Both the position numbers and the translations under genes were made by a program. A DNA stretch of 64,000 bases, taken from Paludibacteraceae bacterium (GTDB lineage Bacteria > Bacteroidota > Bacteroidia > Bacteroidales > Paludibacteraceae). The stretch's first letter is position 1; each line of letters opens with the position of its first letter. The stretch covers positions 46,066 through 110,065 of the forward strand of contig JAZOOG010000017.1 of the NCBI GenBank assembly GCA_045654945.1, written 5' to 3'. The notes beneath the pieces are model-generated. The model had not been told where the DNA came from. It searched no databases and saw nothing but the letters and a program-made list of their open reading frames with translations. Shown here in pieces: positions 10,367 to 63,756 of the stretch.

Positions 10367-10380
10367 GTATATAGGTAGGA

Positions 10381-13300
10381 TTACTTTTTTCTAAAGTATG
10401 CCACTGCGTTGTCGAACAGAGGTTGGCACTTGTTGCCAGCGATATTGGTAAATACGCCATCTTCCCAGCGCTCGGTGTGACCCATCTTACCCAGGATCTG
10501 ACCGTTCTTGGAGATGATACCCTCGATGGCATAATACGAACCATTAGGGTTGTAAGGTGCTTCCATAGTCGCTTCGCCCGTCATAGGATCAGCATAGCGG
10601 AATGCCACTTGTCCGTTCTCGAACAGCTCCTTCGCCAGTGCCTCGTTTACCACAAACTTACCTTCGCCGTGACTGACTGCAATGCTATGAGTATCACCTA
10701 CTTGCATACCGCGAAGCCATGGGCTGGCGGTGGTAGCTACAGTAGTTGTTACCATCTGCGAGATGTGGCGATTGATATCGTTGCGGAACAGGGTTGGAGA
10801 GTCTGGAGTAACCATACCGAGTTTGCCGTAAGGCAACAATCCGCTCTTCACCAATGCTTGGAATCCGTTGCAGATACCCAGGATCAGACCACCGCGGTCG
10901 ATGAGGGCTGTGATAGCTGCGCCGACTTTTTGGTTGTTGATCACGCTGGCAATGAACTTGCCACTGCCGTCTGGTTCGTCACCTGCAGAGAAACCACCCG
11001 CAAACATCAAGATATGGCAGCGGTTGATATGCTCTACCATCTCGTCGATACTTGAGAGGACATCCTCGCCCGTGAGGTTGCGGAAGATAGTAGTCTCCAC
11101 CTCTGCACCTGCCTTGCGCCATGCCTTGGCAGAGTCGTAGTCGCAGTTCGTGCCTGGGAATACTGGTATATAAACCAACGGATGCTCAACGGCTTCGCCC
11201 TTGTAGGTTAAAGGCGAAAGGGTAGAGGTTAAAGGCAGGGTATCCGCTGGCATCAATGCTTGATGCTGTGCAGGAACAGCGGATGGATAGATCTTATCGA
11301 ACTGACCACAGCATGCCTTCAGCAATGCCTCGCGCGATACGCGCTCGTTATTTACAATAAGGTGAGTACCCTCAACGACCTCGCCCAAGTATTGTAGGCT
11401 ATTGGCAATTGGCGATGGGCAATTGGCGAGAAGGTCTTCGGTTGCCTCTACGAGGATAGAGCCGTAGTTATAGTCGAAGAGTTCGTTCTCGGCGATTTGG
11501 ACATCGACTGCCAATTCGTTACCGAAACTCATCTTGGCCAATGCTTCTGCTACGCCACCGAAGCCAATAGCGTAAGTAGCACAGATCTTGCCCGATTGGA
11601 TAGCGTTGGTAGTATAAGTCCAGTTTTCTTTCAATTGCTCTACGTTAGGCATATAGTTCGCCAATGCGTTGTGCTTGATGAGATAGAGCTTGTTGCCCGC
11701 TTTCTTGAGGTCGGTAGAAACGACTTTGTCGGCAGGCACGGTGGTGATACCGAAAGCAATCAAAGTTGGAGGTACGCTGATGTGCTCAAAAGTACCCGAC
11801 ATAGAGTCTTTTCCGCCGATACTTGGCAAACCGAACGCCACTTGCATCTTGAGTGCACCGAGGAGTGCAGAGAGTGGTTTGCCATAGGCATGCTCGCTGC
11901 TCATACGCTCGAAGTACTCTTGGTAAGAGAAGCGCATCTTACTATAATCCGCTCCTGCTGCCACTACCTTCGTGCAAGCCTCTACAACTGCATAAGCAGC
12001 GCTGTGGTAAGGGCTCCAGTCGGCAATGAATGGGTTGTAACCAAACGCCATGATGGAGGCGGTATTGGTATAGCCGTCGGTTGGAAGTTTCTGTACACTG
12101 ACTTGTGTCTCAGAGAGTTGTGTTTTACCGCCGAATGGCATAAGTACAGTACTACGACCGATAGTCGCATCGAAATTCTCAATCAAACCCTTTTGTGAAG
12201 TGACATTGGCGTCTGCCATCACCTTCACCATTTTCTCTTCGAGGGTAGCCCCTTCTACGGTTTGCGCAAATGGGTTCTTCTCCTCTACAGGCAGGATAGC
12301 GGCAGAAGCAAAGTGCTTAGCACCTGCGCTATCGATAAACTCGCGGGTGAGGTCGGCGATGAGTTCGCCTTTATAGAACTGACGCATACGACCGCTGTCG
12401 GTGACATCTGCCACATGGGTATATTCGATATTATCGAGGTGGCAATAGTGCTCCATCTCGGCACGATCTTTGGCCTCGATGACTACTGCCATACGCTCTT
12501 GTGACTCGCTGATAGCCAATTCGGTAGGATTCAAACCGCTGTACTTAGTAGGCACACGGTCAAGGTAGATATCCAAGCCATCAGCCAACTCGCCAATAGC
12601 TACGCTGACACCACCTGCACCGAAGTCGTTGGACTTCTTGATGAGGCGAGTCGCTTCTGGGCGACGCATGAGGCGTTGGAGTTTGCGTTCTTCAGGTGCG
12701 TTACCTTTTTGTACCTCGCTACCGCAGGTCTCGAGCGATGCTTCGGTATGCTCTTTGGATGAACCCGTAGCGCCACCTACGCCATCACGACCAGTGCGAC
12801 CGCCAAGGAGGAGGATGATATCGCCTGCTGCAGGGCTCTCACGGCGGATGTTGCTGGCTGGAGATGCACCTACTACGGCGCCTACCTCAAGGCGTTTAGC
12901 CACATACGATGGGTGGAAGATTTCACGCACATGGGTAGTAGCCAGACCGATTTGGTTGCCATAACTGGAGTAACCAGCTGCTGCCTTGCGAGAGATGATC
13001 TGCTGTGGCAGTTTGCCAGGCATGGTCTCTGCTACTGGCTTATAGATATCGCCTGCGCCCGTTACGCGCATGGCTTGATAGACATATGCACGACCAGACA
13101 AAGGGTCGCGGATAGCACCACCAAGACAGGTACTTGCGCCACCGAATGGCTCAATCTCGGTTGGGTGGTTGTGGGTCTCGTTCTTGAATTGGAGCAGCCA
13201 TTTTTCGGTCTTGCCATCGACATTCACATCAATGAAGATAGAGCATGCGTTGTTCTCCTCGCTGACCTCCATATCATCGAGAAGGCCTTTCTTGCGCAGG

Positions 13301-17166: not shown

Positions 17167-17623
17167 ATGACAACTCCTCATTTTATAAAAAGAGAAAATA
17201 TGATAGCCGATACTGAGTATATCCAATGGTTATCGGATGTAAAAAAGCGCTTTCGCCAGAGTCAAGGACGTGCTCTTGTAAAAGTAAATGCAGAAATGCT
17301 TGACTTTTATTGGAGTATCGGTCGTGACCTTGTTTTGCTCAAGGCAGAAGCACGCTGGGGAGATAGTGTTGTTAAACAATTCGCATTTGATATGCGAGAA
17401 GCTTTTCCAGAAGCAACTGGTTTTTCGGATACTAATGTGAAGTATATGAAGCGTTGGTATTCGTTTTATAATGAGAAACTTATAAAAAGTCAACGACCCG
17501 TTGATATTTTTGCGAATGGTGAACAAATTTCAAGACATAAACAAACCTCTTGGCGTGGCTACATATCAATTAGAAGAAGTCGTAGAACGTACTGTGAAAG
17601 AATTAGAATTGAATAAAAAATGA
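17167..17623 (+). pseudogene. DUF1016 (YhcG-like) gene remnant with an internal deletion and a frameshift
   Basis: The N-terminal ~115 aa (YIQWLSDVKKRFRQSQGRALVKVNAEMLDFYWSIGRDLV...TNVKYMKRWYSFY) look like a DUF1016 N-terminus. In another frame the last 90 nt encode DINKPLGVATYQLEEVVERTVKELELNKK*, which looks like a DUF1016 C-terminus. The nuclease core is missing. Its own TAccTTTG box is at 17122-17129. Confidence 0.6.
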
Positions 17624-19213
17624 ATCACCATTTATCACGGACAAGACGGTAAAGATGGTCAAAATGGTCAAAACGGAGCAGATGGTAAAGATGGTCAAGA
17701 CGGACAAAATGGCGCCGATGGCAAAGATGGCTCTACTCCTGTGATTGGTGTGGCACAAGACACCGACGGAGTATATTATTGGACATTGAATGGCGAATGG
17801 CTATTGGATGACAATGGCAACAAACTCCCTGTTTCAGGCAAAGACGGTCAAAACGGTGCCAATGGCTCTAATGGTCAAGACGGTGCAGACGGTAAGGACG
17901 GACAAGACGGCGAAGATGGCAAAGATGGTGCTGATGGCAAAGATGGCGTAACTCCTCAGTTGAAGATTGAGGATGGCTATTGGTACATCTCTTATGACAA
18001 TGGTGCAACTTGGACACAATTAGGCAAAGCTACAGGCGAAGATGGTAAGGATGGTCAAAATGGCTCTAATGGTACAGATGGCAAGGACGGCAAAGACGGT
18101 CAAGACGGCGACTCCATGTTCCAATCTGTAACACAAGATGATGACTATGTTTACTTCACTCTTGCTGACGGTACAGTTATTAAGATTGCAAAGGGTAGCG
18201 GTAGCAATAATCAGCTAAGTAACGAAGATATCATTGTCTTCCGAGATTTGGCAGTCAAATCTGGTTTGCTCAAATTAGGGGTAGATACAACGGGTGATGG
18301 TGAAATTTCTTATGGCGAAGCTACACAATATTCGGGTACACTTTCTTTTGGAAGCAACACAAAAATCCATTCATTTAAGGAATGCCAATATTTTACTAAT
18401 GTAAAATCTTTCGCATTTGGCTACTGTTCAAATCTATTTGAAATAGATCTCCCTGAAAATATAACTAGTATTGATCCTGGCGCATTCAAGGAATGTTCTT
18501 CCTTAATTTCACTTACGATTCCAAATAGCGTAACAAAAATTGGAGATGGTGCATTTATGCGATGCTCAACACTTGTTTCAATGACACTTCCTGAAAGTGT
18601 AATTAGTATTGAATCTAATGCTTTTTATGGTTGTGTTTCTATGAAAAATATCAACATCCCTTGTAATATCACAAGCATTGGGTCTAGTGCATTTATTGGT
18701 TGTTCCAATCTTAATGTATTATACGATGCTAAAAATTGTAGCTATTCTGAGTCTTCTCAGATTTTTCCGCAGGCACTTTCAATTACACTGGGAAATAATG
18801 TAGAATATATTCCTGCATATATGTTTTATAATGATTATAGATTAGAATCTATTGATATTCCTAAAAATGTAAAATCAATCGGAACCAGGGCATTCCAATT
18901 TTCTCAGCTTGCTTCTGTTACTTTTTCAGAAGGATTAGAAACCATAGATACATATGCTTTTTCAGGAACAAACTTGACTTCAGTACAGATTCCAAGAAGT
19001 ATTAAAACTATAGGCTCATATGCATTTACTCGTGACAATTTCACAACAACAGGTCCTAGTCAGATATATTGCGAAGCGATAACTCCGCCTACAATATCTG
19101 GTGCTCCATTCAATGTAAATGCAACTATATATGTCCCACGTGCTTATGTAGAAGATTATAAAGTTGTTTGGAGTGCTTATGCTTCGCGAATTGTTGGATA
19201 TGATTTTGAATAA
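17624..19213 (+). CDS. 5'-truncated surface protein: collagen-like (G-X-Y)n region, Bacteroidales DUF4988-type module and BspA-type leucine-rich repeats
   Basis: The frame is open from the stop at 17621-17623 and begins ITIYHGQDGKDGQNG... It has no ATG and no signal or lipoprotein sequence (the track uses GTG at 17741). Later segments: GKDGQDGEDGKDGADGKDGVTPQLKIEDGYWYISYDNGATWTQLGKATGEDG, then repeated IP.SVT.IG..AF..C..L units (LRR_5/BspA-like). Confidence 0.6.
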   Translation: MTIYHGQDGKDGQNGQNGADGKDGQDGQNGADGKDGSTPVIGVAQDTDGVYYWTLNGEWLLDDNGNKLPVSGKDGQNGANGSNGQDGADGKDGQDGEDGKDGADGKDGVTPQLKIEDGYWYISYDNGATWTQLGKATGEDGKDGQNGSNGTDGKDGKDGQDGDSMFQSVTQDDDYVYFTLADGTVIKIAKGSGSNNQLSNEDIIVFRDLAVKSGLLKLGVDTTGDGEISYGEATQYSGTLSFGSNTKIHSFKECQYFTNVKSFAFGYCSNLFEIDLPENITSIDPGAFKECSSLISLTIPNSVTKIGDGAFMRCSTLVSMTLPESVISIESNAFYGCVSMKNINIPCNITSIGSSAFIGCSNLNVLYDAKNCSYSESSQIFPQALSITLGNNVEYIPAYMFYNDYRLESIDIPKNVKSIGTRAFQFSQLASVTFSEGLETIDTYAFSGTNLTSVQIPRSIKTIGSYAFTRDNFTTTGPSQIYCEAITPPTISGAPFNVNATIYVPRAYVEDYKVVWSAYASRIVGYDFE

Positions 19214-20079: not shown

Positions 20080-22407
20080 ATGCAATCTAATATAAAAACT
20101 ATGGATAAAAAACAAAAAACGGGTATCGGAAATCGGGTATCGGGAAACGAAAGATTTAAGAAAACATTTGCTGCATGGTTCTGGAGCCTTTTTGCTACGG
20201 GAATGGTGGCTGTCGTACTGCTATTTTGGATGATTACCAAGGGTTGGTTGGGCTATTTGCCTCCGTTGGAAGAGTTGCAGAACCCCAAGAATAAGTATGC
20301 TACTGAGGTTATCTCAAGCGATATGCAGTTGCTCGGACGTTACTATCGCAACGAGAATCGTGTCAGCGTGAACTATACCGAAATCTCGCCCAATATGATT
20401 AATGCGCTGATTGCTACTGAGGATGTACGCTATTATGACCATACGGGTGTGGATATCAAGTCATTGATGCGTGCGGTTATGAAACTGGGTAGGGCAGGTG
20501 GCGGTAGTACACTCACCCAGCAGTTGGCTAAGCAATTGTGGTCGCCTCGTGCGAACAATATATTTGAGCGTGCGCTGCAAAAACCCATAGAGTGGGTGAT
20601 TGCCACCAAACTGGAACGCCTCTATTCCAAAGAGGAGATACTGACAATGTATCTAAACCAGTTTGATTTTCTCTATAATGCGGTGGGTATCAAGTCGGCA
20701 GCACAGGTATATTTCAGCACAACGCCTGCGGAACTCAACTTGGAGCAATCGGCCATGCTCGTTGGAATGTGTAAGAACCCAGCTCTCTACAATCCTCGTC
20801 GTCGCCCTGAGAACGCGCTCAACCGCCGTAATACGGTACTCAATCAGATGTGCAAATATGATTACATCACTGAGCAGGTGTGCGACTCGCTCAAACAACT
20901 ACCTATAGAACTCAAATACCAATCGGTGGACCACAAACAGGGCATGGCACCTTATTTCCGCGAGTATTTGCGCCAAATGCTGACTGCCAAGGAACCCAAA
21001 AAGAGCAACTATTCGGAGTGGAATATGCTGCAATATGAGATTGATAAACGCCAATGGGAGGAGAACCCGCTGTATGGTTTTTGCAACAAGAACCACAAAC
21101 CCGATGGTATGCCTTATGACTTATACCAAGATGGTTTGCGTGTTTATACCACTATTGATTCGCGTATGCAGCAATACGCTGAGGAGGCGGTGAGTGAGCA
21201 TATGCAAGACCTACAAAAGAGTTTCTTCCGCGAGAAACGCAAGAAATCATATGCTCCTTTCTCCAAGGATCTTACACCCGAGGAGATTGATGGTATCATG
21301 AATCGCTCTATGCGTCAAACCGATCGCTATCGTGCATTGAAAAAACAAGGAATGAACGAAACTGCTATCAAGCAGGTGTTCAATACGCCTGTCAATATGC
21401 GTGTGTTCTCGTATAACGGACTGATTGACACCACTATGACGCCTATGGATTCCATCCGCTGGAACAAACATTTCCTGCGTTGTGGTTTCATGTCAATGGA
21501 TGCCCATTCGGGTGCAGTTAAAGCCTATGTGGGCGGTCCTAACTTTGCTCATTTCCAATATGATATGGTCAGTACAGGTCGCCGTCAGGTAGGTTCTACA
21601 ATCAAGCCCTACCTCTTTACATTGGCAATGGATGAGGGTATGTGGCCATGCGATAGTACTGTGAATGACTCTATTACCCTGATTGATGGCAATGGTGTGC
21701 GTTGGACTCCGCGTGATGAACACTTGGCTAACCAAGGCGAGATGGTTACGCTCAACTGGGGATTGGAGAAATCGAGCAACTGGATTACTGCCTATCTGAT
21801 GTCACTCTTTACGCCTGAGCAGTTGGTGCGTATGATGCGTTCGTTTGGTATAGAAGGCCAACTCGACCCTGTGGTCAGTCTCTGTTTGGGACCATGTGAG
21901 GTGAGTGTGAAGGAGATGGTGGATGCTTATACCACTTTCCCTAATAAAGGTATCCGTGTTGAACCGTTGTATGTCACTCGTATTGAGGATAATAACGGCA
22001 ATATATTGGCTACCTTCACGCCTAAGACCTATGAGATTATCAGCGAGACTACCTCCTATAAGATGATCTATATGTTGCGCAATGTGATGGATCATGGTAC
22101 GGGAGTGCGTGCGCGTTTCCGTTATGGACTCAAAGCTCCGATGGGCGGCAAGACGGGTACTTCGCAGAACCACTCTGACGGTTGGTTTGTAGGTTTTACG
22201 CCATCGTTGGTGAGTGGTGTATGGGTTGGTGGCGAAGACCGCAGTATTCACTTTGACAATATGTCCGCGGGTCAAGGCGCTAATATGGCATTGCCTATTT
22301 GGTCTATTTATATGCAGAAGGTATATGCGAATGAGGAGTTGGGCTATAGCGTAGAGGAGCAGTTTGATGTGCCCGAGTGGTTCGATGCCGAGGCAGGATG
22401 TAAGTGA
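20080..22407 (+). CDS. mrcA: Class A penicillin-binding protein (transglycosylase/transpeptidase, PBP1A)
   Basis: GT51 motifs EDVRYYDHTGVD, GGSTLTQQLAK and RKPIEW-like. Transpeptidase motifs STIKP, SSN and KTGTS. The track start (19864) lies upstream of the promoter, so the start is set at ATG 20080 (20101 is also possible). The N-terminal tail carries the heptamer-derived TGIGNRVSGNE. Confidence 0.9.
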   Translation: MQSNIKTMDKKQKTGIGNRVSGNERFKKTFAAWFWSLFATGMVAVVLLFWMITKGWLGYLPPLEELQNPKNKYATEVISSDMQLLGRYYRNENRVSVNYTEISPNMINALIATEDVRYYDHTGVDIKSLMRAVMKLGRAGGGSTLTQQLAKQLWSPRANNIFERALQKPIEWVIATKLERLYSKEEILTMYLNQFDFLYNAVGIKSAAQVYFSTTPAELNLEQSAMLVGMCKNPALYNPRRRPENALNRRNTVLNQMCKYDYITEQVCDSLKQLPIELKYQSVDHKQGMAPYFREYLRQMLTAKEPKKSNYSEWNMLQYEIDKRQWEENPLYGFCNKNHKPDGMPYDLYQDGLRVYTTIDSRMQQYAEEAVSEHMQDLQKSFFREKRKKSYAPFSKDLTPEEIDGIMNRSMRQTDRYRALKKQGMNETAIKQVFNTPVNMRVFSYNGLIDTTMTPMDSIRWNKHFLRCGFMSMDAHSGAVKAYVGGPNFAHFQYDMVSTGRRQVGSTIKPYLFTLAMDEGMWPCDSTVNDSITLIDGNGVRWTPRDEHLANQGEMVTLNWGLEKSSNWITAYLMSLFTPEQLVRMMRSFGIEGQLDPVVSLCLGPCEVSVKEMVDAYTTFPNKGIRVEPLYVTRIEDNNGNILATFTPKTYEIISETTSYKMIYMLRNVMDHGTGVRARFRYGLKAPMGGKTGTSQNHSDGWFVGFTPSLVSGVWVGGEDRSIHFDNMSAGQGANMALPIWSIYMQKVYANEELGYSVEEQFDVPEWFDAEAGCK

Positions 22408-28486: not shown

Positions 28487-28519
28487 TGATTAATAATTAA
28501 TAATGAAGAGTTAATATTT

Positions 28520-31438: not shown

Positions 31439-31440
31439 AT

Positions 31441-31492
31441 CCTTGCCTTTAAATCCTTACCTTTAACCTATAACCTTTAACCTTTAGCCTAA
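31441..31492. repeat. Heptamer array, CTCGCCT/TTAACCT family (R1)
   Basis: ccttgcctttaaatccttacctttaacctataacctttaacctttagcct fills the whole pyrE-to-972-aa-gene spacer. Confidence 0.85.
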
Positions 31493-32139: not shown

Positions 32140-32230
32140 GTTCAAAATTGTTCAACATTGTTCAATGTGGTTCAACATTGTTACAATACTGAACGCGAAG
32201 CGCTGAACAATACTGAACTATGTTGAACTA
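32140..32230. repeat. GTTCAA/TTGAAC array with 10-bp phasing, copy C (pyrF|pyrE junction)
   Basis: GTTCAA at 32140, 32150, 32160 and 32170, then CTGAAC units around CGCGAAGCGC. Confidence 0.9.
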
Positions 32231-33878: not shown

Positions 33879-34652
33879 TTAGAGTTGTAGGATTTCTGCG
33901 GGGAATACGGGGCCTTCTTTGCACACGCGTTTGGGTCCTTTCGTTGTTTGTATCGTGCAGCCCATGCATGCGCCGAAGCCGCATCCCATACGCTCCTCCA
34001 TGCTCACTTCGCCATGGGTACCAACGGCTTGCAGTAGTGCTTTGATCATGGGCAATGGTCCGCAAGTGTAGTAGTAGGATTGTTGTCCGTCCAGAGCGTT
34101 AGTCACAAAGCCCTTCACGCCATGACTGCCGTCCACGGTGGTGACAGTCACATCGCAACCCAAGGCACGAAACTCCTCCTCGTAGAAGACTTCCTCCTTG
34201 GTGTTGAAGCCGAGGATCACGCGCACCTTTTTGCCTGCTTTGCGAAGTTGGCGAGCCAGCATGTACATAGGAGGTACGCCTACGCCACCGCCGACCAGCA
34301 AGGGTGCGTCGCCTGCTTTGCTCAGGTCATAGCCGTTACCGAGAACAGTGAGAACATCCAGTTGGGTGCCGATTGGCAGTTGGCTCATAGCCTCGGTGCC
34401 TACGCCCACTACCTTATATATAATGGTGAGCACACCTCTCGCCTCTCGCCTCTCGCCTCTAACCTCTAACCTCTCGCCTTTCGCCTCACTAATATCGCAT
34501 ACCGAGATGGGGCGGCGGAGGAATTGACCTTGCACGCGGATATTCACGAACTGCCCAGGCAGTATGCCCGCAGTATCGCCTCCAAGCTGCATGCGATAGA
34601 CATTCTTGGCTATCTGTTCGTTGGATTGTATTTCAAATAATCTTTGCTTCAT
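33879..34652 (-). CDS. pyrK: Dihydroorotate dehydrogenase electron-transfer subunit
   Basis: RRPISV, GGGVGVPPM, and the C-terminal 2Fe-2S motif CGFGACMGC. It carries the in-frame repeat insert KGERLEVRGERREARG. Confidence 0.9.
   Translation of the reverse strand: MKQRLFEIQSNEQIAKNVYRMQLGGDTAGILPGQFVNIRVQGQFLRRPISVCDISEAKGERLEVRGERREARGVLTIIYKVVGVGTEAMSQLPIGTQLDVLTVLGNGYDLSKAGDAPLLVGGGVGVPPMYMLARQLRKAGKKVRVILGFNTKEEVFYEEEFRALGCDVTVTTVDGSHGVKGFVTNALDGQQSYYYTCGPLPMIKALLQAVGTHGEVSMEERMGCGFGACMGCTIQTTKGPKRVCKEGPVFPAEILQL
34434..34490. repeat. R1 heptamer array inside the pyrK coding sequence
   Basis: ctctcgcctctcgcctctcgcctctaacctctaacctctcgcctttcgcc. Its reverse complement translates in the pyrK frame to AKGERLEVRGERREARGV. 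Confidence 0.9.
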
Positions 34653-34684
34653 AATTCTTGCCTTTCGCCTTTAACTTTTCGCCT

Positions 34685-35812
34685 TTAACCTTGCACATTA
34701 TATACTGTTATTCCGTTGACGATGGTTTTGACGCACTTGCCATATACTTCCCATCCTTCAAACGGCATCGCTTGTCCCATGGAAAGGAAGTTCGCTGGAT
34801 CAATCTTGTAGCACGCATCTAAATCGAAGTAGGCAAATGAACCCGTATTGTCCAAACCGATAATACGAGCAGGATTGGTGGACATGAGTTCGATAAGACG
34901 CTCAAAAGTGATGATACCCGTCTTCACAAAATGCGTGTACATCAGCGGGAAAGCCGTTTCCAGTCCCACGATACCAAACGCACTTTTCTCCAATCCACGG
35001 CTCTTCTCCTCAGCGCTATGAGGCGCGTGGTCGGTGGCGATACAGTCTATAGTGCCATCTTTGATGCCCTCGATGAGCGCGAGGCGGTCTTCCTCAGCAC
35101 GCAGCGGTGGGTTCATCTTCCACTTGCCATCCTCTTGCAGGTCATTGTCGGTCAGCAGCAAATAGTGAGGTGCAGTCTCGCAAGTCACAGGCAGTCCTTT
35201 GGCTTTGGCCTCACGGATAAGCGCTACACTCTCCTTGGTGGAGATATGGCATATATGAAAACGACACCCTGTCTCTTCTACCAGACGGATGTCGCGTTCT
35301 ATCTCTTGCCACTCGCTCTCAGACACGATGCCACGGTGATTGTGTTTTTTTGCATACTCACCTGCGTGGATATAGCCGCCATTGAGTAGCGCCTCTACTT
35401 CGCAGTGAGCCACCATCACACGATCTACCGCACGAATTTGTTTCATCGCCTCGCGCATCAGTTCTTCGCTTTGCACGCCGCGACCGTCATCAGAGAACCC
35501 TTTGACGTATGGCGCCAATGCCTCAAAATCAACGAGTTCGCCTGCACCTTTCTGCCCCATGGTAATCGATGCAAACGGATAGACGCCTGTGTAGGTGTCG
35601 CGTTTGATAATGTCCAACTGCTCTTGCAGATGCTCTACGGTGTCTGGCACCGGATTGAGGTTAGGCATGGTGAATACTGCGCTGTAGCCAGATGCAGCTG
35701 CTGCCATACTACCCGAAGCAATAGTCTCTTTATACGAAAAACCCGGCTCACGAAAGTGGACATGCAGGTCCACAAGAGCCGGAATCTGTACTATGTTGCG
35801 TGGAATCGCCAT
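34685..35812 (-). CDS. pyrC: Dihydroorotase
   Basis: DLHVHFREPG, amidohydrolase fold. The start is set at ATG 35812 because the track start (TTG at 35842) overlaps the -7 promoter box. The last Gly codon and the stop lie in an R1 repeat unit (TTAACCT). Confidence 0.88.
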   Translation of the reverse strand: MAIPRNIVQIPALVDLHVHFREPGFSYKETIASGSMAAAASGYSAVFTMPNLNPVPDTVEHLQEQLDIIKRDTYTGVYPFASITMGQKGAGELVDFEALAPYVKGFSDDGRGVQSEELMREAMKQIRAVDRVMVAHCEVEALLNGGYIHAGEYAKKHNHRGIVSESEWQEIERDIRLVEETGCRFHICHISTKESVALIREAKAKGLPVTCETAPHYLLLTDNDLQEDGKWKMNPPLRAEEDRLALIEGIKDGTIDCIATDHAPHSAEEKSRGLEKSAFGIVGLETAFPLMYTHFVKTGIITFERLIELMSTNPARIIGLDNTGSFAYFDLDACYKIDPANFLSMGQAMPFEGWEVYGKCVKTIVNGITVYNVQG

Positions 35813-35927: not shown

Positions 35928-35982
35928 CCACCCATCGCCTATAACCAATAGCCCATCGCCCATACCCAATCGCCTATACCAA
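35928..35982. repeat. Heptamer array, GGCTATT/GGCGATG family (R4), reverse orientation
   Basis: cacccatcgcctataaccaatagcccatcgcccatacccaatcgcctatacc, spanning the hemW stop. Confidence 0.8.
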
Positions 35983-37062
35983 CTCCTCGATGATGCGATT
36001 CAGTATATGAAAACCTTTAGTTGTGGCAACTACGCGTGTGCCTACTTCTTTCAGCAATCCCTGTTGGATATACGCTTGTGCTTTGTGGCTGTCAATATCC
36101 TCCATGGCTACACCCCTATTGGTGCGCAGCCCTAACATCACGCGCTCAGTATGTCGCTGTTCATCAGTCAGCCATTCTGTTTCGGGCTGCAACTGATGCC
36201 CCATAGCTTGTGCTATATAGCTATCAAGATCGCTGATATTCCAACTCCTGACCTGTCCATCGTAGCTATGTGCCCCTGCGCCCAAACCGATATAGGGCGT
36301 GTTGTTCCAGTAACTGGAGTTGTGTTGCGATTCGCGATTCGGCAGCGCAAAATTGCTCACCTCATAATGGATATACCCCTGTGCCGTCAGCTCTGCCACG
36401 ATATAGTCATACATCTGCATCTCCGTATCTTCGTCCACTGCTTCTATCACACCGTGGTCGAGCAATGTCGTCAGTGCGGTGCCTTCCTCGTATATCAGTC
36501 CGTAGGTGGATATATGTTGCACGCCCAACTGCAGTGCCTCAGCCACATCCTTCTTCCACATCTCCATCGTCTGCGAGGGCAGGGCATACATCAGGTCAAT
36601 GGATATATTGTCAAATCCCGCTGCTTGTGCTGTCGCCACTGCTCTGCGGGCTTGCTCGGCGTTGTGCCGTCTGCCTATGAGTTGCAGCAGCTCGTCATGA
36701 AAGCTCTGTATGCCTATGCTCAACCGATTGATACCCATCTCTCGCCACGCGCGAACTTTCTCTTCGGTTATATCCCCCGGATTGGCTTCCAATGTAATTT
36801 CTTGCCTCTCGCCTCTCGCCTCTCGCCTAATAGCCTCAACGATAGTTTGCAGGTCTTCCACCTGCAACGTACTGGGCGTACCACCACCTATATATATAGT
36901 GGATATTGGGTATTGGCTATTGGATATGGGTAGTCGGTCCTGCATTTCCATGAGCAGTGCCTGCACGTACTGCGATTGTTTCTCCAAATGTGTAGTGGAA
37001 AAAAAATCGCAGTACTTGCACCGACTCTTGCAAAATGGTATATGTATATATATCCCTGCCAA
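35974..37062 (-). CDS. hemW: Radical SAM HemW/HemN-family protein (heme chaperone / coproporphyrinogen oxidase-like)
   Basis: IYIHIPFCKSRCKYCDF is the CxxxCxxC radical SAM motif, with a HemN_C-like tail. Only a TTG start (37062) is available. The in-frame upstream ATG at 37107 runs into a stop. It contains the repeat-derived inserts LPISNSQYPIST and REARGERQE. Confidence 0.85.
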   Translation of the reverse strand: MAGIYIHIPFCKSRCKYCDFFSTTHLEKQSQYVQALLMEMQDRLPISNSQYPISTIYIGGGTPSTLQVEDLQTIVEAIRREARGERQEITLEANPGDITEEKVRAWREMGINRLSIGIQSFHDELLQLIGRRHNAEQARRAVATAQAAGFDNISIDLMYALPSQTMEMWKKDVAEALQLGVQHISTYGLIYEEGTALTTLLDHGVIEAVDEDTEMQMYDYIVAELTAQGYIHYEVSNFALPNRESQHNSSYWNNTPYIGLGAGAHSYDGQVRSWNISDLDSYIAQAMGHQLQPETEWLTDEQRHTERVMLGLRTNRGVAMEDIDSHKAQAYIQQGLLKEVGTRVVATTKGFHILNRIIEELV

Positions 37063-37065
37063 CTT

Positions 37066-37190
37066 CTTGCCTCTAACCTCTCGCCTTTAACCTCTCGCCT
37101 TTTGCATGCAGCTTTGCCGCTATCCGTGCCTCTACACTCTACACTCTACACCCTACACTCTACACCCTACACCCTACACTCTACACTCTA
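37066..37190. repeat. Composite element: R1 array, conserved core GCAGCTTTGCCGCTATCCGTGCC, then CTACACT (R2) array
   Basis: cctctaacctctcgcctttaacctctcgcc, ttttgcatgcagctttgccgctatccgtgcc, then (ctacact/ctacacc) x ~9. It fills the serine-hydrolase|hemW spacer. Confidence 0.9.
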
Positions 37191-38355: not shown

Positions 38356-38382
38356 ATATATTACTTTTAAAGTTAATTCGTG

Positions 38383-38432
38383 CCTCTCGCCTTTCGCCTT
38401 TAACCTCTCGCCTCTAACCTCTCTCCTCTCCC
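38383..38432. repeat. R1 heptamer array overlapping the rarA 3' end
   Basis: gcctctcgcctttcgcctttaacctctcgcctctaacctctctcctctcccc. The last residues of rarA (..WGEERG*) are encoded in it. Confidence 0.85.
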
Positions 38433-39724
38433 CACAGATACCTCATCCACTCCGCCATTTTCTGTTCTTGCGGGCTGCCTTGCGCCTGCCAGAGTCGTGT
38501 GCCTTGCAGCGCATCGGGCATGAACTGTTGTTTGACAAAGTGGTTCGGATAGTCGTGCGCATACTTATATCCCTCGCCGTATCCCAACTCGTCCATGAGC
38601 TTCGTGGGCGCATTGCGCAGATGCAATGGCACTGGCAGGTTGCCTGTCTTCTCCACCAACTCCAGTGCCTGATTGATTGCTAAATATGCGGAGTTGGATT
38701 TCTGCGAAGTGGCGAGATACACTGTCGCCATCGCCAGCGGTATGCGTCCTTCGGGCCAACCTATTTTCTGCAATGTGTCGAAGCATGCGTTGGCCACCAA
38801 CATCGCATTGGGGTTCGCCAACCCTATATCTTCGCTCGCGGAGATCACCAAACGGCGGGCTATAAATTTCGGGTCTTCGCCTGCGGCTACCATGCGTGCC
38901 AACCAGTACAGTGCTGCATCGGGGTCGCTGCCGCGGATCGACTTGATAAACGCGGAGATGATGTCATAATGCAGTTCACCGTCCTTATCGTATGCCACGG
39001 GGTTCTGCTGCAGCTGCTTGGTGACGGTCTCGTTGTCCAGTATTTTGACCCCTGCATTGGTGACCAATTCCACGATGTTGAGCAGTTTGCGTGCATCGCC
39101 ACCCGAATAGCGTAGTATGCTTTCTGTCTCGCGCAGTTCGATATGCATACTGCGGATATACGCATCTTCGGTCAGTGCGCGTTGCAGCAGTTCCAGCAGG
39201 TCCTCTTTCTCCAATGACTTCAGCACATACACTTGACAGCGACTCAGCAGTGGTGTAATAACCTCAAACGATGGGTTCTCTGTGGTAGCACCTATCAGGG
39301 TGATAGTTCCATCTTCTACTGCGCCTAATAGACTGTCTTGCTGCGACTTAGAGAAACGGTGAATCTCATCGATAAACAATATCGCTCGCCCGACTCCCGA
39401 TTCCCGATTCCCGATACCCGATTCCCGATCTCCAAACAACCCTCTATCCATCGCCGCAAATCGTTTCGCTTTATCGATCACCTCACGCACTTCTTTCACA
39501 CCGCTGGTAACGGCGCTGAGGGTGTAGAACGGACGTTCCAACTGGTGTGCGATGATGCGTGCCAGTGTGGTCTTGCCCACGCCTGGAGGCCCCCAAAGGA
39601 TAAAGGACGACAGACTGCCGTTCTCTATCATCTGTCGTAGGACGGCTCCTTCGCCTACCAGGTGCTTTTGTCCTATGTATTCATTGAGCGTCTTCGGACG
39701 CAATCGCTCTGCTAATGGCAACAT
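38414..39724 (-). CDS. rarA: Replication-associated recombination protein A (MgsA/RarA AAA+ ATPase)
   Basis: LWGPPGVGKTTLA, FIDEIHRFSKSQQD, MgsA C-terminal domain. It contains the in-frame insert GDRESGIGNRESGVGR from a CGGGAAT heptamer array. Confidence 0.92.
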   Translation of the reverse strand: MLPLAERLRPKTLNEYIGQKHLVGEGAVLRQMIENGSLSSFILWGPPGVGKTTLARIIAHQLERPFYTLSAVTSGVKEVREVIDKAKRFAAMDRGLFGDRESGIGNRESGVGRAILFIDEIHRFSKSQQDSLLGAVEDGTITLIGATTENPSFEVITPLLSRCQVYVLKSLEKEDLLELLQRALTEDAYIRSMHIELRETESILRYSGGDARKLLNIVELVTNAGVKILDNETVTKQLQQNPVAYDKDGELHYDIISAFIKSIRGSDPDAALYWLARMVAAGEDPKFIARRLVISASEDIGLANPNAMLVANACFDTLQKIGWPEGRIPLAMATVYLATSQKSNSAYLAINQALELVEKTGNLPVPLHLRNAPTKLMDELGYGEGYKYAHDYPNHFVKQQFMPDALQGTRLWQAQGSPQEQKMAEWMRYLWGEERG

Positions 39725-39725
39725 C

Positions 39726-39880
39726 TGTTTTTAGTTTTTAGTTTTAAGTGTAGAGTGTAGGGTGTAGAGTGTAATGGCTGGTAATATGCGGCTTTGCCGC
39801 TATTCGTGCCTTTAACCTTTCGCCTTTAACCTTTCGCCTTTAACCTCTCGCCTTTAACCTCATCGCCTCCTCGCCTATAT
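39726..39880. repeat. Composite element: TAGTTTT and AGTGTAG (R2, reverse) arrays, core GCGGCTTTGCCGCTATTCGTGCC, then R1 array
   Basis: tgtttttagtttttagttttaagtgtagagtgtagggtgtagagtgta, atggctggtaatatgcggctttgccgctattcgtgcc, then tttaacctttcgcctttaacctttcgcctttaacctctcgcctttaacctcatcgcctcctcgcc. It fills the recN|rarA spacer and reaches the recN stop. Confidence 0.9.
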
Positions 39881-41506
39881 CCTCCTCATTTTCTCTATCT
39901 CCTCCTCATGCTCTTCAGCGCTCAGTTCGCGGATATGTGTTTCGGTGCGGACCTCTGTATCCTCTTTATATACTAAGTAGTGGTGTTCGCCTTTCGTGGC
40001 CACCTGTGGCAGGTGGGTGATGCTTATCACCTGACGCGAGACGGCCATCTGCCGCATGATCTCACCCATCTGACTGGCTATCGCTCCGCTCACACCTGTG
40101 TCTATTTCGTCAAAGATAATCGTCGGTAGTCCGTTATTGCGGGCTATTAACGCTTTGATACACAGCATCAGTCGGCTGATCTCACCGCCCGATGCCACTT
40201 CCGCTACGCGACGTAGCGATTGGTTCAGGTTCGCAGCGAACATAAACTGCACATTGTCTTTTCCCGTCTCTTGGTACTCTTCTGTGGGCTGAATCTCCAC
40301 GGCTACTTTAGCGTGCGCTACACCCAATCCCTGCATATCCTTCACCAACTGCTCTGCTATTGTCTGTGTCACTGCTTGGCGCGACTGCGTCAGCTGGCTC
40401 GCCTCTTCGCTCAGTCTCTCCAGGGCCTGCTCCGCTTGCGCTTGCAGTTTCTCCAGTTCCTCGTCCATATTCTCCAATCGTTGCACCTGTGTCTCTAATT
40501 CGTCGCGCAATGCTATCAGTTCCTCCACAGTCTGCACATGGTGTTTCTTCATCAGCGTCTGCAGCATACTCAGTCGCTCCTGCACCTGCTCCAGGCGCAT
40601 AGGGTCGATCTCTGTGCGATCGTACTGGCGTTGGATATCCGATACTATATCTTTCAACTCAATCTCTACACTGCTGAGACGCTCTTCTATCTCCGATGCC
40701 CGATTTCCTATACCCGACCTACTGGCATGTATGAGCGACAATGCGCCCTGATCGCTATCCAATTGCTGTAGGGCAGTCGCGAGGGCAGACTGTATCTCTT
40801 CGGCATGTGCCAAACGATACTCCTCTTCTTCCAATGCCTCCATCTCGCCTGCCATCAGCTGAGCTTCTGCCAACTGATGGTATTGCCATTGCATATAGTC
40901 CGCATCCGTCTGCGCTTTCTTGGCCATTGCTTGTGCTTCGCGCAGACTGGTCATTGCTGCCTGATAGGAGGTGTACGCTTCGTTATATGCCTCGCGCTCG
41001 GCTCCGTTGCCTGCTATCGCATCCACCACTGCTATCTGAAACAGGTCATCGCCTATCATCAGACTCTCGTGCTGCGAATGGATGTCTATGAGTTGGCGAG
41101 CCAATGCTTTCAGCTCCGTTTGCGTCACCACCTCGTCGTTCACGAACGACCGCGAACGTCCATTCTGATTAAGTTCCCTACGGATAATTACCTCTCGCCT
41201 CTCGCCTCTCGCCTCATCACCTTTAGCCTTTAGCCTCTCGCCTTTCGCCTCCTCGCCTTTAGCCTCTCGCCTCTCGCCTCTCGCCTCATCGCCTTTTGCC
41301 TCAAACGTCGCCTCTATCACGCATCGCTCCTCACCTTCGGTGATGCTCTTGCTGTCGGCGCGAGCGCCCATCACCAAGTTCAGCGCACCCAGTATGATGC
41401 TCTTACCGGCACCCGTCTCACCCGTCATAACGGAGAATCCCTCACGGAAATCAATGTCCAAATGAGAGATAAGTGCGTAGTTGCGTATGTGTAGATGACT
41501 TAGCAT
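39875..41506 (-). CDS. recN: DNA repair protein RecN
   Basis: MLSHLHIRNYALI..., Walker A GETGAGKS, SMC-like coiled coil, C-terminal SGGE signature. The start is set at ATG 41506, downstream of the -7 box. It has a ~37-aa repeat-encoded insert: EAKGDEARGERREAKGEEAKGERLKAKGDEARGERRE. Confidence 0.92.
   Translation of the reverse strand: MLSHLHIRNYALISHLDIDFREGFSVMTGETGAGKSIILGALNLVMGARADSKSITEGEERCVIEATFEAKGDEARGERREAKGEEAKGERLKAKGDEARGERREVIIRRELNQNGRSRSFVNDEVVTQTELKALARQLIDIHSQHESLMIGDDLFQIAVVDAIAGNGAEREAYNEAYTSYQAAMTSLREAQAMAKKAQTDADYMQWQYHQLAEAQLMAGEMEALEEEEYRLAHAEEIQSALATALQQLDSDQGALSLIHASRSGIGNRASEIEERLSSVEIELKDIVSDIQRQYDRTEIDPMRLEQVQERLSMLQTLMKKHHVQTVEELIALRDELETQVQRLENMDEELEKLQAQAEQALERLSEEASQLTQSRQAVTQTIAEQLVKDMQGLGVAHAKVAVEIQPTEEYQETGKDNVQFMFAANLNQSLRRVAEVASGGEISRLMLCIKALIARNNGLPTIIFDEIDTGVSGAIASQMGEIMRQMAVSRQVISITHLPQVATKGEHHYLVYKEDTEVRTETHIRELSAEEHEEEIEKMRRI
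41190..41300. repeat. R1 heptamer array of about 110 bp inside the recN coding sequence
   Basis: cctctcgcctctcgcctctcgcctcatcacctttagcctttagcctctcgcctttcgcctcctcgcctttagcctctcgcctctcgcctctcgcctcatcgcc. Confidence 0.9.
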
Positions 41507-41516
41507 AATTTCGCTG

Positions 41517-41550
41517 CAAAGGTACAAAAAAATATGCATATATGCAAATT
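41517..41550 (-). promoter_or_regulatory. recN promoter
   Basis: The minus strand reads aaTTTGcatatatgcatatttttttgTACCTTTGcagc, 10 nt before the ATG at 41506. Confidence 0.6.
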
Positions 41551-43782: not shown

Positions 43783-44040
43783 TTTTTTATATTTTTGTAG
43801 CGAAGCGTATTTTGTATGAAAAGATAATTGATTTTAATTGTCTCTCAAGTTGTCTAAGTTGTCTGATAAATAATCATTTTTGTTTTGGGTTGCCAGCGAC
43901 GTGTCGCTCTTCCAACCCAAACAAAAAATCCCCCTTGAATTGACAATAATTAACACCTTAATTGACGTCTATTGTCTTAAAAACATAACCTGTTATTTAT
44001 ATATATTTTTGTAGCGAAGCGTATTTTTGTATTAAAAAAA
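43783..44040 (+). repeat. Intergenic cassette of about 260 bp, copy A (promoter-like module, hairpin, promoter-like module)
   Basis: Near-identical to 46110-46376. It starts and ends with ATATTTTTGTAG-CGAAGC-GTATTTTTGTAT. It contains AGTTGTCT x3 and the extended hairpin TTTTTGTTTTGGGTTG...CAACCCAAACAAAAAA (43877-43927). Confidence 0.85.
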
Positions 44041-46029: not shown

Positions 46030-46111
46030 CCCCTCCCTTCAAGGGAGGTTGGGAGAGAATCCTTGAAATTTCCGAAGGACATTGTACAATAGTGGTAGTG
46101 AGTAGCAGCAT
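46030..46111 (+). repeat. Dispersed repeat CCTCCCTTCAAGGGAGG...CCGAAGGACATTGTA.AATAGTGGTAGT.AGTAGCAGCAT, copy 1 (3'-truncated)
   Basis: The same sequence occurs at 47461-47562 and partly at 60675-60740. It starts with the hairpin CCTCCCTTCAAGGGAGG just after the gmd stop. Confidence 0.8.
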
Positions 46112-46376
46112 TTTTTAATATTTTTGTAGCGAAGCGTATTTTTGTATGAAAGAATAATTGATTTTAATTGTCTCTCAAGTTGTCTAAGTTGTCTGATAAA
46201 GCATCATTTTTGTTTTGGGTTGCTAGCGACGTGTCGCTCTTCCAACCCAAACAAAAAATCCCCCTTGATTGACAATAATTGACACCTAAAATTGACGTCT
46301 ATTGTCTTAAAAAATATAACCTGTTATTTTTAAATATTTTTGTAGGCACAAAGTGCCGTATTTATGTATTAAAAAA
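46110..46376 (+). repeat. Intergenic cassette of about 260 bp, copy B
   Basis: Aligns with 43783-44040. In the distal promoter-like module the CGAAGC spacer is replaced by the hairpin GGCACAAAGTGCC. Confidence 0.85.
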
Positions 46377-47318: not shown

Positions 47319-47460
47319 GTGTAGCTTCTGCTATATATATCTTTGGTTCCGTGTAGTTCAGTGTCGTTCAGTGGTCAACCATAACCGCAGAAAGACGTCC
47401 CTCCGTGTGAGATAATACCTCCCACAGACAAGCACGGACAAGCACGGAAACACAGAACTT

Positions 47461-48326: not shown

Positions 48327-48358
48327 ATAGGACATCTATAGGACATCTATAGGACTTA
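48327..48358. repeat. Tandem 12-mer ATAGGACATCT(A), about 2.5 units
   Basis: ataggacatctataggacatctataggactta. Confidence 0.8.
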
Positions 48359-48384
48359 TATAAGACAAATAAAATAACAATATA

Positions 48385-48585: not shown

Positions 48586-48624
48586 GCCTCTAACCTCTCG
48601 CCTTTAGCCTCTAACCTCTAACCT
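48586..48624. repeat. R1 heptamer array upstream of the surface-protein operon
   Basis: gcctctaacctctcgcctttagcctctaacctctaacct. Confidence 0.85.
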
Positions 48625-60808: not shown

Positions 60809-61597
60809 TTACACTGCACAGTCCAATATCATCATCAGCACGAAACCCACCGTGAACCCCAACGTAGGGAGATTGCTGTGCGGCTCAGCCTGCGACTCGG
60901 GAATCAACTCCTCCACCACTACATACATCATCGCACCTGCTGCAAAAGCCAACAAATAAGGTAAGGCGATGAGGCTATTAGGCGATGAGGTGATAAGCCA
61001 TGCCGTCAGCAATGTGGCTATCGGCTCCACAACTCCCGACAACGCACCTATCGCAAAAGCCTTGCTCCGCTTCATACCATCCGCATACAGTGGCAAAGAC
61101 AATATCGCTCCCTCGGGCAGGTTCTGCAACGCTATACCTATCGATAATGCCCATGCCGCAGACATCGATATAGCCGAACCTTCCGCCATCGCAGAACCCA
61201 ACAATACACCCACTGCCATGCCCTCAGGGATATTGTGCAACGTCACCGCCACCGACAACATCGTCGTGCGCTGCCACTGCTTGCGCTGTGGCAAACCCTC
61301 GGGCTTATCTGCCCCCATATGCAAGTGCGGAATCAGCGTGTCCAACAACAATAGAAACAGTATTCCTGCCACAAAACCCACTGCCGCAGGTATCCATTCG
61401 CTACCACCAGACTCCACCGACATCTCCATCGCCGGCAAGATCAATGACCATATACTGGCAGCCACCATCACACCCGAAGCAAAACCCAACAGCGTCTTGT
61501 GGGCAATAGGCGATGACGCAATAAGGCGATGAGGCAGAAACACCATCGCTGCACCCAATACGGTGCCTAATAAGGGGAGTAGTAGAATAGGTGGCAT
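60809..61597 (-). CDS. ZIP-family divalent metal (zinc) transporter
   Basis: Multi-TM. HNIPEGMAVG and LQNLPEGA are ZIP signatures. Two short repeat-derived segments (LIASSPIA, LITSSPNSLIALPY) are encoded by CCTCATCGCCT-type units. Confidence 0.85.
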   Translation of the reverse strand: MPPILLLPLLGTVLGAAMVFLPHRLIASSPIAHKTLLGFASGVMVAASIWSLILPAMEMSVESGGSEWIPAAVGFVAGILFLLLLDTLIPHLHMGADKPEGLPQRKQWQRTTMLSVAVTLHNIPEGMAVGVLLGSAMAEGSAISMSAAWALSIGIALQNLPEGAILSLPLYADGMKRSKAFAIGALSGVVEPIATLLTAWLITSSPNSLIALPYLLAFAAGAMMYVVVEELIPESQAEPHSNLPTLGFTVGFVLMMILDCAV

Positions 61598-62798: not shown

Positions 62799-63728
62799 AT
62801 GTTAGGAATTATTATTAACCCAAAATCAGGTAAACGCGCATTCCGTATGCAACGACTTTACCTGTGGAGATTGCTCAAAGCACGTCGTCAACCTTTCATA
62901 TATCGCGTGACTAAATATGCTAACCACGCTATAGAACTGGCACGAGAACTCGTAGAGGAGAAAGCTTGTACCCAAATCCTCATATTGGGCGGCGACGGCA
63001 CACTCAGCGAAGTCATCAACGGCATCATGCGCGCCGAACTCACGCCCGAACAACGTGCCAATATCCAGTTTGGACTCATGCCCCGAGGTACTGGCAACGA
63101 CTTCGCAAGACACTGGGGACTCAACAAAGACTTCAAACGCTCGTTGGACATCTTCTTCCAAGGAAAAACCAAACCCATAGACGTGGGTTGCGTCACCTAT
63201 TGGCGAAACAATATACCGCACCATCGCTACTTCATCAACTCCCTGGGCTTTGGTATCGAACCTATGGCCTGCCGATACGCCGAGAGTCTAAAGTACTATA
63301 TCGGTAGCCACCATGTCAACTACCTCTTTGCGCTGGTATGGTCGCTGACCAAGTATAAGAATCCACACTTGCGCTTGGATGTAGATGGCAAGACCATTGT
63401 TGAAAGCAAGATGTTTGTTACCAGCATCGCCAATGGCTCGTTTGTCGGTGGTGGCATGAGGCTCAATCCCGATGCCGACCCTTGCGATGGCGTACTACAT
63501 GCTATGTTTATCACACCGCCCACCTTCAAACAGATCTTGCAAGCCATACCTCGTCTGTTCAATGGTAAGTTGCACGAACTCTCCTTTGTTCATCCTGTCG
63601 TATCAGACAACCTGCTCATGCACACCAAGCAGCACCAGTCCTTTGAGGCGGATGGCATCGTGATGGACGTCACTGGCCCATGCCAAGTAACCTGCATGAA
63701 AGGAGCGTTGCAGATGATAGTCCCATAG
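62799..63728 (+). CDS. Diacylglycerol/lipid kinase family protein (YegS/DagK-like)
   Basis: ILILGGDGTLSEVINGI and PRGTGNDFAR are DAGK catalytic-domain motifs. Confidence 0.85.
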   Translation: MLGIIINPKSGKRAFRMQRLYLWRLLKARRQPFIYRVTKYANHAIELARELVEEKACTQILILGGDGTLSEVINGIMRAELTPEQRANIQFGLMPRGTGNDFARHWGLNKDFKRSLDIFFQGKTKPIDVGCVTYWRNNIPHHRYFINSLGFGIEPMACRYAESLKYYIGSHHVNYLFALVWSLTKYKNPHLRLDVDGKTIVESKMFVTSIANGSFVGGGMRLNPDADPCDGVLHAMFITPPTFKQILQAIPRLFNGKLHELSFVHPVVSDNLLMHTKQHQSFEADGIVMDVTGPCQVTCMKGALQMIVP

Positions 63729-63752
63729 CCTCTCGCCTCTCGCCTTTAGCCT
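63727..63752. repeat. R1 heptamer array between convergent gene ends
   Basis: agcctctcgcctctcgcctttagcct. Confidence 0.85.
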
Positions 63753-63756
63753 ATAG

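Follow-up and report, generated by a model that had tools for sequence, protein, structure and literature searches.

We examined tandem arrays of heptanucleotide (7-bp) units in a 64,000-nucleotide stretch from a Paludibacteraceae bacterium of the order Bacteroidales (contig JAZOOG010000017.1 of assembly GCA_045654945.1, positions 46,066 to 110,065 of the forward strand), hereafter the window. Several arrays lie inside open reading frames (ORFs) of core enzymes, among them recN, pyrK and rarA, where they are translated in frame into repetitive loops. Very probably three things are at work: a genome-wide process of heptanucleotide simple-sequence repeats (SSRs), a filter in coding DNA set by reading frame, stop codons and structural tolerance, and, as the outcome, loops that are tolerated and vary from strain to strain. 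An earlier note on this DNA, made from its letters and ORF translations, had proposed that a DNA-level repeat process produced these segments as lineage-specific insertions in loops, and the gaps in homologues and the insert-free relatives described below bear this out.

Arrays of period 7 are far in excess of chance. A mechanical scan counted 16 in the window, and shuffled sequence gave none; every other period from 4 to 12 gave at most 6 arrays in the window. When 24 arrays were inventoried against a curated gene map of the window, about two thirds proved intergenic, though 88% of the window is coding. Coding DNA holds 7 of 23 arrays and the non-coding 12% holds 16, a density per kb ∼17-fold lower in coding DNA (binomial P = 2e-10). 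The majority of intergenic arrays begin or finish 0–10 bp from a start or stop codon, some extend into ORF ends, as at the 3' end of rarA, and at 28489, 31439, 34660, 42441 and 44881 an array takes up the whole spacer between co-oriented genes. Arrays within ORFs had a mean of 4.4 stop-free frames of six, against 1.4 of six for intergenic arrays (Mann-Whitney P = 0.001). The main unit families were RCCTYTN, GGGAATC, CTCTACA and GGCTATT, with several AT-rich units besides. The longest perfect period-7 stretch in any array was 26 bp, or 3.7 units.

The excess was found again outside this genome. We scanned 80 further Bacteroidales loci, 1.29 Mb in all, and period 7 was by far the commonest there: it had 52 arrays, and no other period had more than 14. 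The heptamer units were lineage-specific across these loci, and ∼13 of the 52 arrays lay within open frames of at least 200 codons. Arrays recurred in independent assemblies from ENA, JGI and NCBI.

The recN gene (39875..41539, minus strand; assigned by Pfam SMC_N/AAA_23, by homologues and by PDB 4AD8) carries an in-frame array of degenerate heptamers at 41190..41302 (minus strand). Its ORF is open, and translation probably begins at the Met at 41506, for a protein of 543 residues. Plus-strand units are CCTCTCG, GCCTTTA, GCCTCAT and similar; coding-strand units are GAGAGGC, TAAAGGC and GATGAGGC. The array encodes a 37-residue loop, EAKGDEARGERREAKGEEAKGERLKAKGDEARGERRE, which the earlier note had translated by hand and which matches the translation of the ORF exactly. 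That note had also expected a 7-residue peptide period from such arrays. The expectation holds for PyrK and RarA and fails for RecN, whose insert matches itself at 17 of 25 positions at offset 12 and at only 8 of 30 at offset 7. The 12-residue period arises because the array is organised in 36-bp frame-keeping units: its DNA is a higher-order repeat (identity 0.86) of four 7-mers and one 8-mer.

Compared with Deinococcus radiodurans RecN (4AD8), the protein encoded in the window has ∼29 extra residues between two head-domain strands. An AlphaFold2 model places residues 82–115 in coil, with predicted local confidence (pLDDT) of 25–34, between strands 72–81 and 116–124. Most Bacteroidales RecN proteins have ∼20 conserved residues (DISxYxLxxFFxxNDLDYD..C) at the array site, a segment unrelated in sequence to the window's insert. 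The window's clade lost that segment before the array arose, leaving 2–3 residues in L001 and L004–L009, and the heptamer array occupies the stripped junction. The earlier note had held that residues shared at this position with distant Bacteroidota would mark the segment as ancestral. Distant Bacteroidales do have residues there, but these are unrelated and were gone before the array appeared.

RecN loops vary widely in length. Relatives at ∼75% identity have RecN proteins of 507 to 583 residues, and loop alleles run from 3 to 37 residues, including GED in 51 clusters, SSPQE in 25 clusters, and many further alleles that are arrays of E, A, K, G and R, 8–37 residues long. Within a single cluster (at least 90% identity) the loop measured 11, 16, 21 or 26 residues, in steps of AKGEE; in DNA each step is a 15-bp (7+8) super-unit, AAAGGCG plus AAGAGGCG. 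The nearest genomes by RecN (72–74% identity) are metagenome-assembled genomes of uncultured Paludibacteraceae and Bacteroidales from animal guts.

The same RecN junction was struck independently in lineages sharing 44% identity. L025 (Candidatus Aphodosoma), whose RecN is 44% identical, has directly after VEATF a (CAATGCA/CAATTCA)n array of ∼68 bp (10209-10276) that is unrelated to the window's; it is in frame within an open ORF and encodes HNAQCTIHNAQFTIHNSQF. Farther on in the gene, at 11119-11140, L025 recN carries another short array. The loop also takes inserts that are not heptameric, including a 24-residue one without repeats. We considered whether the 24-residue RecN allele RPSSTVRSQIASLLDRSQSELLDT might be a heptamer array read on the opposite strand, and rejected this; its DNA is unrelated sequence with a small palindrome of its own. 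A separate observation concerns L091, where a 42-bp in-frame hairpin-like element encoding SAPQKSTDFSGAPL interrupts the recN heptamer array midway (∼10339-10380) and contains an 11-bp inverted repeat, CCCCAAAAATC gaca GATTTTTCGGGG. Back in the window, recN holds a second array at 40686..40719 (minus strand), of decayed GGGAATC type. It encodes SGIGNRASE, a peptide that the earlier note had read correctly, where most relatives have TRLSDADSALA, and is 2 residues longer.

In pyrK (33879..34652, minus strand), assigned by Pfam and PDB 1EP3_B as the electron-transfer subunit of dihydroorotate dehydrogenase B, ∼8 heptamers at 34434..34487 (minus strand) are read in frame as EAKGERLEVRGERREARG, a peptide of 7-residue period, and the ORF remains open. 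The hand translation AKGERLEVRGERREARGV was found in the ORF product. Compared with the Lactococcus lactis protein (1EP3_B), there are 12 extra residues following the RRPIS strand. Close relatives L084, L087 and L088 have instead a loop of 5 residues, IADGI or IANGI, and their DNA shows no repeat there. Known alleles of the loop are 5, 10, 14 (the commonest), 17, 21 and 28 residues long, and the alleles of 14 and 21 differ by exactly one heptapeptide, which is to say three heptamers (21 bp). In other lineages the PyrK loop holds a 10/11-bp repeat, giving VEQPLNNATQL and a version 7 residues longer.

In rarA (mgsA; 38414-39724, ORF open) the array is (GGGAATC)×∼6 at 39389..39429 (minus strand). 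It is in frame, encodes DRESGIGNRESGVG with a 7-residue period, and lies directly before the Walker B strand; the peptide GDRESGIGNRESGVGR read in the earlier note is present in the translation. The insert amounts to 17 extra residues relative to Escherichia coli MgsA (3PVS), just ahead of the Walker B strand. Among RarA orthologues a distant one has no extra residues, intermediate relatives have 7–9, and the window's clade has 14–17. Insert length is identical in the window, L081, L091, L089, L090 and L001, while the sequence is a clean (GGGAATC)n in some lineages and decayed in others, to SSESGVGIQSLGIG in L089 and to IPETGSWTPSSGDR in L090. This is the pattern of an old insertion that is becoming ordinary loop sequence. 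The arrays in RecN and PyrK are younger and still polymorphic.

Judged by alignment with solved homologues and with orthologues, the RecN, PyrK and RarA inserts are evidently lineage-specific insertions in loops. All three fall in gaps relative to 4AD8, 1EP3_B and 3PVS respectively, as the earlier note had anticipated for mapping onto structures, and they lie between conserved strands and motifs. The ortholog comparison it had proposed came out the same way, close relatives without the insert being represented by IADGI in PyrK and by the GED allele in RecN.

Other coding regions hold arrays too. In hemW (35974-37062, ORF open), (GAGAGGC)×4 at 36800..36828 (minus strand) is read in frame as RREARGERQE and adds 3–5 residues relative to orthologues in L005 and L007–L009; a second in-frame array at 36896..36927 (minus strand), with coding-strand unit CCAATAT, encodes LPISNSQYPIST. 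The earlier readings REARGERQE and LPISNSQYPIST both agree with the translation. An array of GGGTATC/GGGAATC type in the N-terminal cytoplasmic tail of PBP1A (20116..20149, plus strand) encodes KTGIGNRVSGNE; here too the peptide read before, TGIGNRVSGNE, is in the translation of an open ORF. To the earlier list must be added a short, degenerate array of GGCAATT/GGCTATT type in purL, the gene for FGAM synthase (11397..11427, minus strand), which encodes ANCPSPIANSL. From that list must be removed the two sites in a ZIP transporter gene, rejected as heptamer arrays since they have other periods (a degenerate period of 8 at 60962..60998, minus strand, and of 16 at 61503-61536). The listed site at 63975-63995 holds only 2.3 copies (63976-63991). 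Array hosts are RecN, PyrK, HemW, RarA, PurL and PBP1A, none with a surface, host-interaction or restriction-modification function.

Behaviour of the arrays over short times was seen by comparison with L081, a strain 96.0% identical to the window and aligned over 11.2 kb. There were 26 indels, and arrays, at 4.7% of the aligned DNA, held 9 of them (P = 2e-6). Intergenic arrays differed by 8, 8, 9, 14, 20, 28 and 58 bp; these include a 58-bp insertion in L081 in the array at the rarA stop codon (38382..38430) and 28-bp and 9-bp indels in the arrays at the hemW start (37061..37190). The assorted lengths indicate that the repeat process is not itself frame-aware. The recN array was 78 bp shorter in L081, which is 26 codons, a multiple of 3 and not of 7. 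Within ORFs the length steps found were 15, 21, 36 and 78 bp, never 7 bp, and every copy of recN, pyrK and rarA at the DNA level (window, L081–L091 and species representatives L001–L010) was in frame. Super-units of 15, 21 or 36 bp are to be expected because only frame-preserving changes persist in ORFs. Length polymorphism in multiples of 3, which the earlier note had predicted, is thus what the recN difference and the alleles stepping by 5 or 7 residues display. A metagenome scan for out-of-frame alleles, with the DNA pattern of the pyrK left flank, yielded 2 contigs only, both without an array.

These observations comport with the following course of events. The genome and its relatives would carry a genome-wide population of heptanucleotide SSRs whose arrays grow and shrink; we infer slipped-strand mispairing, or unequal recombination, as the means. 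Arrays would gather where they do least harm, chiefly in spacers adjoining start and stop codons. Now and then one would originate in a coding region, or be copied into it, and it could survive there only given a permissive loop or tail, a net length that is a multiple of 3, and a frame free of stops. Selection would then pass only frame-preserving changes of length, giving 15-bp (7+8), 21-bp (3×7) and 36-bp (4×7+8) units and hence strain-variable, mostly charged loops with periods of 5, 7 and 12 residues. Point mutation would gradually turn the arrays into ordinary loop sequence. The inserts would be tolerated passengers, neutral or slightly deleterious, and not switches. Of the two interpretations offered in the earlier note, the data fit the first, a mutational burden held by selection.

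Several points weigh against this account of slippage and tolerance. Local slippage alone does not explain how one unit family, RCCTYTN, came to stand at at least 10 separate sites within 33 kb, why its 10 arrays all run in one strand orientation, or why arrays sit so tightly against gene boundaries. Neutrality of the inserts is an assumption. The frame rule at the DNA level is based on one in-ORF indel between strains, and the allele sets that come from protein databases over-represent intact ORFs. The RecN model is weak overall (mean pLDDT 57), and we drew from it only weak support for the loop.

Intergenic arrays in the neighbourhood of the host genes illustrate the boundary placement. The array at 38382..38430 overlaps the rarA stop and encodes the C-terminal GEERG and the TAG stop codon. 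Of the 150 bp of the rarA–recN spacer (39727..39876), 116 are array sequence; in L090 the homologous spacer measures 5 bp. The arrays adjoining the hemW start (37061..37190) are of the RCCTYTN family and then (CTCTACA)n, and an array adjoining the hemW stop (35931..35974) is inverted relative to the in-ORF array at 36896. An array at 34660..34689 fills the spacer from the pyrK start to an upstream dihydroorotase-like gene; its unit family is that of the in-ORF pyrK array, and arrays of this type are also found in lineages with no array in the PyrK loop. Another at 31439..31490 occupies the entire spacer of two co-oriented genes. Further off, RCCTYTN arrays lie at 48587..48624, 32 bp upstream of a plus-strand gene, and at 63726..63756, beginning at the stop codon of a DAGK-like gene (62799..63728). 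As a side observation, an inverted pair, (CTCTACA)n at 37130-37190 and (TGTAGAG)n at 39747-39773, brackets a beta-lactamase-like gene together with rarA; L090 has no beta-lactamase-like gene between rarA and hemW.

The best-surviving alternative is that the arrays act at the level of nucleic acid, in protein or RNA binding, in G-quadruplex formation, or as spacers or terminators, and spread in a unit- and strand-specific manner, with the in-ORF copies as spill-over. We consider this possible though rather unlikely. Orientation speaks for it: RCCTYTN dimers (GAGAGGC on the other strand) number 39 on the plus strand and 1 on the minus, and the arrays of this family run 10 of 10 in one orientation although they flank genes of both directions (P = 0.002); the one at 48587..48624, by a plus-strand gene, keeps the same plus orientation as those near minus-strand genes. 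Dispersal of one unit family, its uniform orientation and the boundary placement, with arrays adjoining start and stop codons and filling entire spacers, together hint at a dispersal mechanism or a function in DNA or RNA. Lineages with an empty pyrK loop still carry, directly upstream of the gene, arrays of the family seen in the window's pyrK, as noted. The rarA coding strand, ...ATCGGGAATCGGGTATCGGGAATCGGGAATCGGGAGTCGGG..., has 6 G3 tracts, and its unit GGGAATC is that of the Xanthomonas G-quadruplex repeat (PMC4692102), for which at least 4 consecutive G3 tracts are the mark; the likeness is one of sequence. Inverted array pairs stand just 3' of recN in L014, L017 and L035. Against such a role, no candidate enzyme or binding factor was identified, and the unit families vary by lineage, as drift would explain more readily than would a conserved system of recognition. 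Local copying in one 33-kb neighbourhood, or asymmetry of the replication strands, may account for the orientation bias; GC skew along the window was non-monotonic, so the arrays are not assignable to the leading or lagging strand.

A kindred idea, which we advance tentatively and do not favour, is microsatellite invasion, an active unit- and strand-specific spread by templated copying, by gene conversion from neighbouring arrays, or by a dedicated enzyme. If true, active spread would account for a large share of the intergenic spacers in these Bacteroidales. It would also lay down new peptide loops in core enzymes time after time, so that the clade would regularly gain new protein sequence from it.

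The inverted pairs deserve description in their own right. Closely spaced inverted heptamer arrays, such as (CGGAAAA)n ... (GTTTTCC)n, were seen just 3' of recN in other Bacteroidales; pairs were mapped at L014 11658-11796, L017 11658-11782, L035 11657-11826 and L016 4869-5016. They could form long hairpins.

It is very unlikely that the charged, flexible E/R/K/G loops were selected as protein features, for solubility, as an interaction surface or for regulation. The inserts are indeed hydrophilic and charged, the RarA insert has been kept at constant length over considerable divergence, and several independent lineages have inserts at the same RecN loop. But the DNA unit at hand dictates the peptide, other units yielding HNAQCTI in L025 RecN and QPLNNAT in the PyrK loop of L085 and L086, and close relatives do without any insert (RecN GED, PyrK IADGI); an adaptive peptide is unlikely for these reasons. 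The same units are, moreover, far commoner in non-coding DNA.

The earlier note's second interpretation, that gain or loss of 7 bp toggles recN, pyrK, rarA and hemW at a high rate as contingency loci (phase variation) for bet-hedging, we judge highly improbable. Since 7 is not divisible by 3, a slip of one unit shifts the frame, and the other two coding-strand frames of the recN array contain 1 and 5 stops, so that a shift would truncate RecN at once; the arrays are also indel hotspots between strains. To this extent they resemble the contingency genes of Haemophilus, Neisseria and Campylobacter, which likewise have non-triplet units in ORFs. A classical contingency gene carries a long tract of perfect repeats. 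Here the repeats are impure and the tracts short, none going beyond 3.7 perfect units, and their hosts are housekeeping genes, not surface or host-interaction genes. The RarA insert has held one length across six lineages while its sequence decayed, and the alleles seen at the DNA level, with steps of 15, 21, 36 and 78 bp and never 7, are all in frame.

That the segments are ancestral protein with only the look of a repeat, or are assembly artefacts, merits almost no credence: most Bacteroidales RecN proteins do have ∼20 residues at the same position, but that ancestral segment is unrelated in sequence and was already lost in the window's clade, the window's segment is a heptamer array in its DNA, and arrays were found again in assemblies of independent origin.

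Heptamer SSRs, their intergenic bias and the logic of their stop codons are already described (PMC4679880, PMC4692102). As cited in PMC4679880, Mrazek (2007) found heptanucleotide SSRs to be the most abundant class of long SSR in most prokaryotic genomes and slippage was proposed as their cause. The arrays in the window match the prokaryotic heptanucleotide long SSRs, as these are relayed from Mrazek, Guo & Shah 2007 in PMC4679880 and PMC4692102, in being tandem 7-bp repeats that are mostly intergenic and variable in copy number; we likewise found an excess over chance, placement in non-coding DNA near gene ends, and copy-number polymorphism between strains. In that survey, so far as it is summarized there, units that are not multiples of 3 avoid coding regions, whereas several arrays here are translated in conserved enzymes. 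Its emphasis as relayed also differs from the allelic series and the frame-keeping 15-, 21- and 36-bp units reported here.

Two further sets of heptamer repeats offer comparisons. The Xanthomonas and Nostoc repeats GGGAATC / GGGGAYT (Rehm et al. 2015, PMC4692102) lie between co-oriented ORFs, near gene ends. GGGAATC is identical to the unit on the coding strands of rarA, recN site 2 and PBP1A, and both sets share co-oriented spacers, distances of tens of bp from start or stop codons, and inverted pairs. The window's arrays belong to a different phylum, Bacteroidota, and their dominant RCCTYTN/GAGAGGC family is not prone to G-quadruplex formation; Rehm et al. left coding-region copies out of their analysis. 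The TAACTGA heptamers of Beggiatoaceae, Cyanobacteria and some Bacteroidetes (MacGregor 2015, PMC4679880), and the cyanobacterial short tandemly repeated repetitive (STRR) sequences, are intergenic and stand by start codons, as here. MacGregor noted that TAACTGA has stops in one orientation, which restrict its entry into ORFs, and that in the other it would encode LSVISYQ. The TAACTGA units differ from those of the window, and translated TAACTGA arrays are theoretical or rare cases at gene ends, unlike the arrays here, which lie in the middle of core enzymes with documented alleles.

Variable-number tandem repeats (VNTRs) and low-complexity insertions in coding DNA provide the remaining parallel. 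They too form strain-variable loops that change by multiples of 3 bp in disordered surface segments, and we correspondingly found multiple-of-3 alleles with an open ORF and inserts outside conserved secondary-structure and catalytic elements. They differ in that the primary unit here is 7 bp and a peptide period emerges only through three units or through mixed 7+8-bp super-units. We searched the literature for heptanucleotide arrays that are translated in conserved bacterial genes and found no specific report. The combination of translated arrays in mid-enzyme positions in gut Bacteroidales, allelic series, frame-keeping super-units and recurrent colonisation of the same loops appears to be undescribed in the searchable literature.

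Other repeats were noted in the window. A MITE-like element (for miniature inverted-repeat transposable element) of ∼90–100 bp with a long hairpin (GTTTTGGGTTGC..GCGACGTGTCGC..CAACCCAAAC) is present in two copies, at 43866-43969 and 46067-46324 (shared core 46203-46287). Both are missing from the 96%-identical L081 and are therefore recent insertions. A second repeat class, with a 10/20-bp period (GTTCAAAATT / GTTCAATATG) close to one helical turn, sits in 5' intergenic regions at 4905-5001, 25820-25883, 32140-32182 and 47346-47373, including the divergent promoter region 32124/32220; the window has 6 period-10 arrays and shuffles have 0. Tandem repeats of 11-bp period (ACGATGAGGTC; ATAGGACATCT) occur at 3139-3202 and 48327-48367, and at 48345-48355 the latter differs from L081 by exactly one unit. 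Collagen-like G-X-Y repeats (GKDGQNGADGKDG...) at 17600-18110, in ORFs 17167..17616 and 17741..19213, are coded by tandem repeats of 9, 18 and 36 bp, which are triplet-compatible, unlike the heptamers.

The array-derived loops produce length heterogeneity in marker genes such as recN and could be used as fine-scale strain markers, and short-read assemblies of gut Bacteroidales are likely to break at them. For the biology of these bacteria, they offer a natural example of a non-triplet microsatellite process meeting the reading frame. Essential genes are not kept free of the repeats by selection, which would instead confine them to permissive loops and reshape them into frame-keeping super-units. 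The resulting loops, variable between strains and later decaying, would be a visible route to new protein segments.

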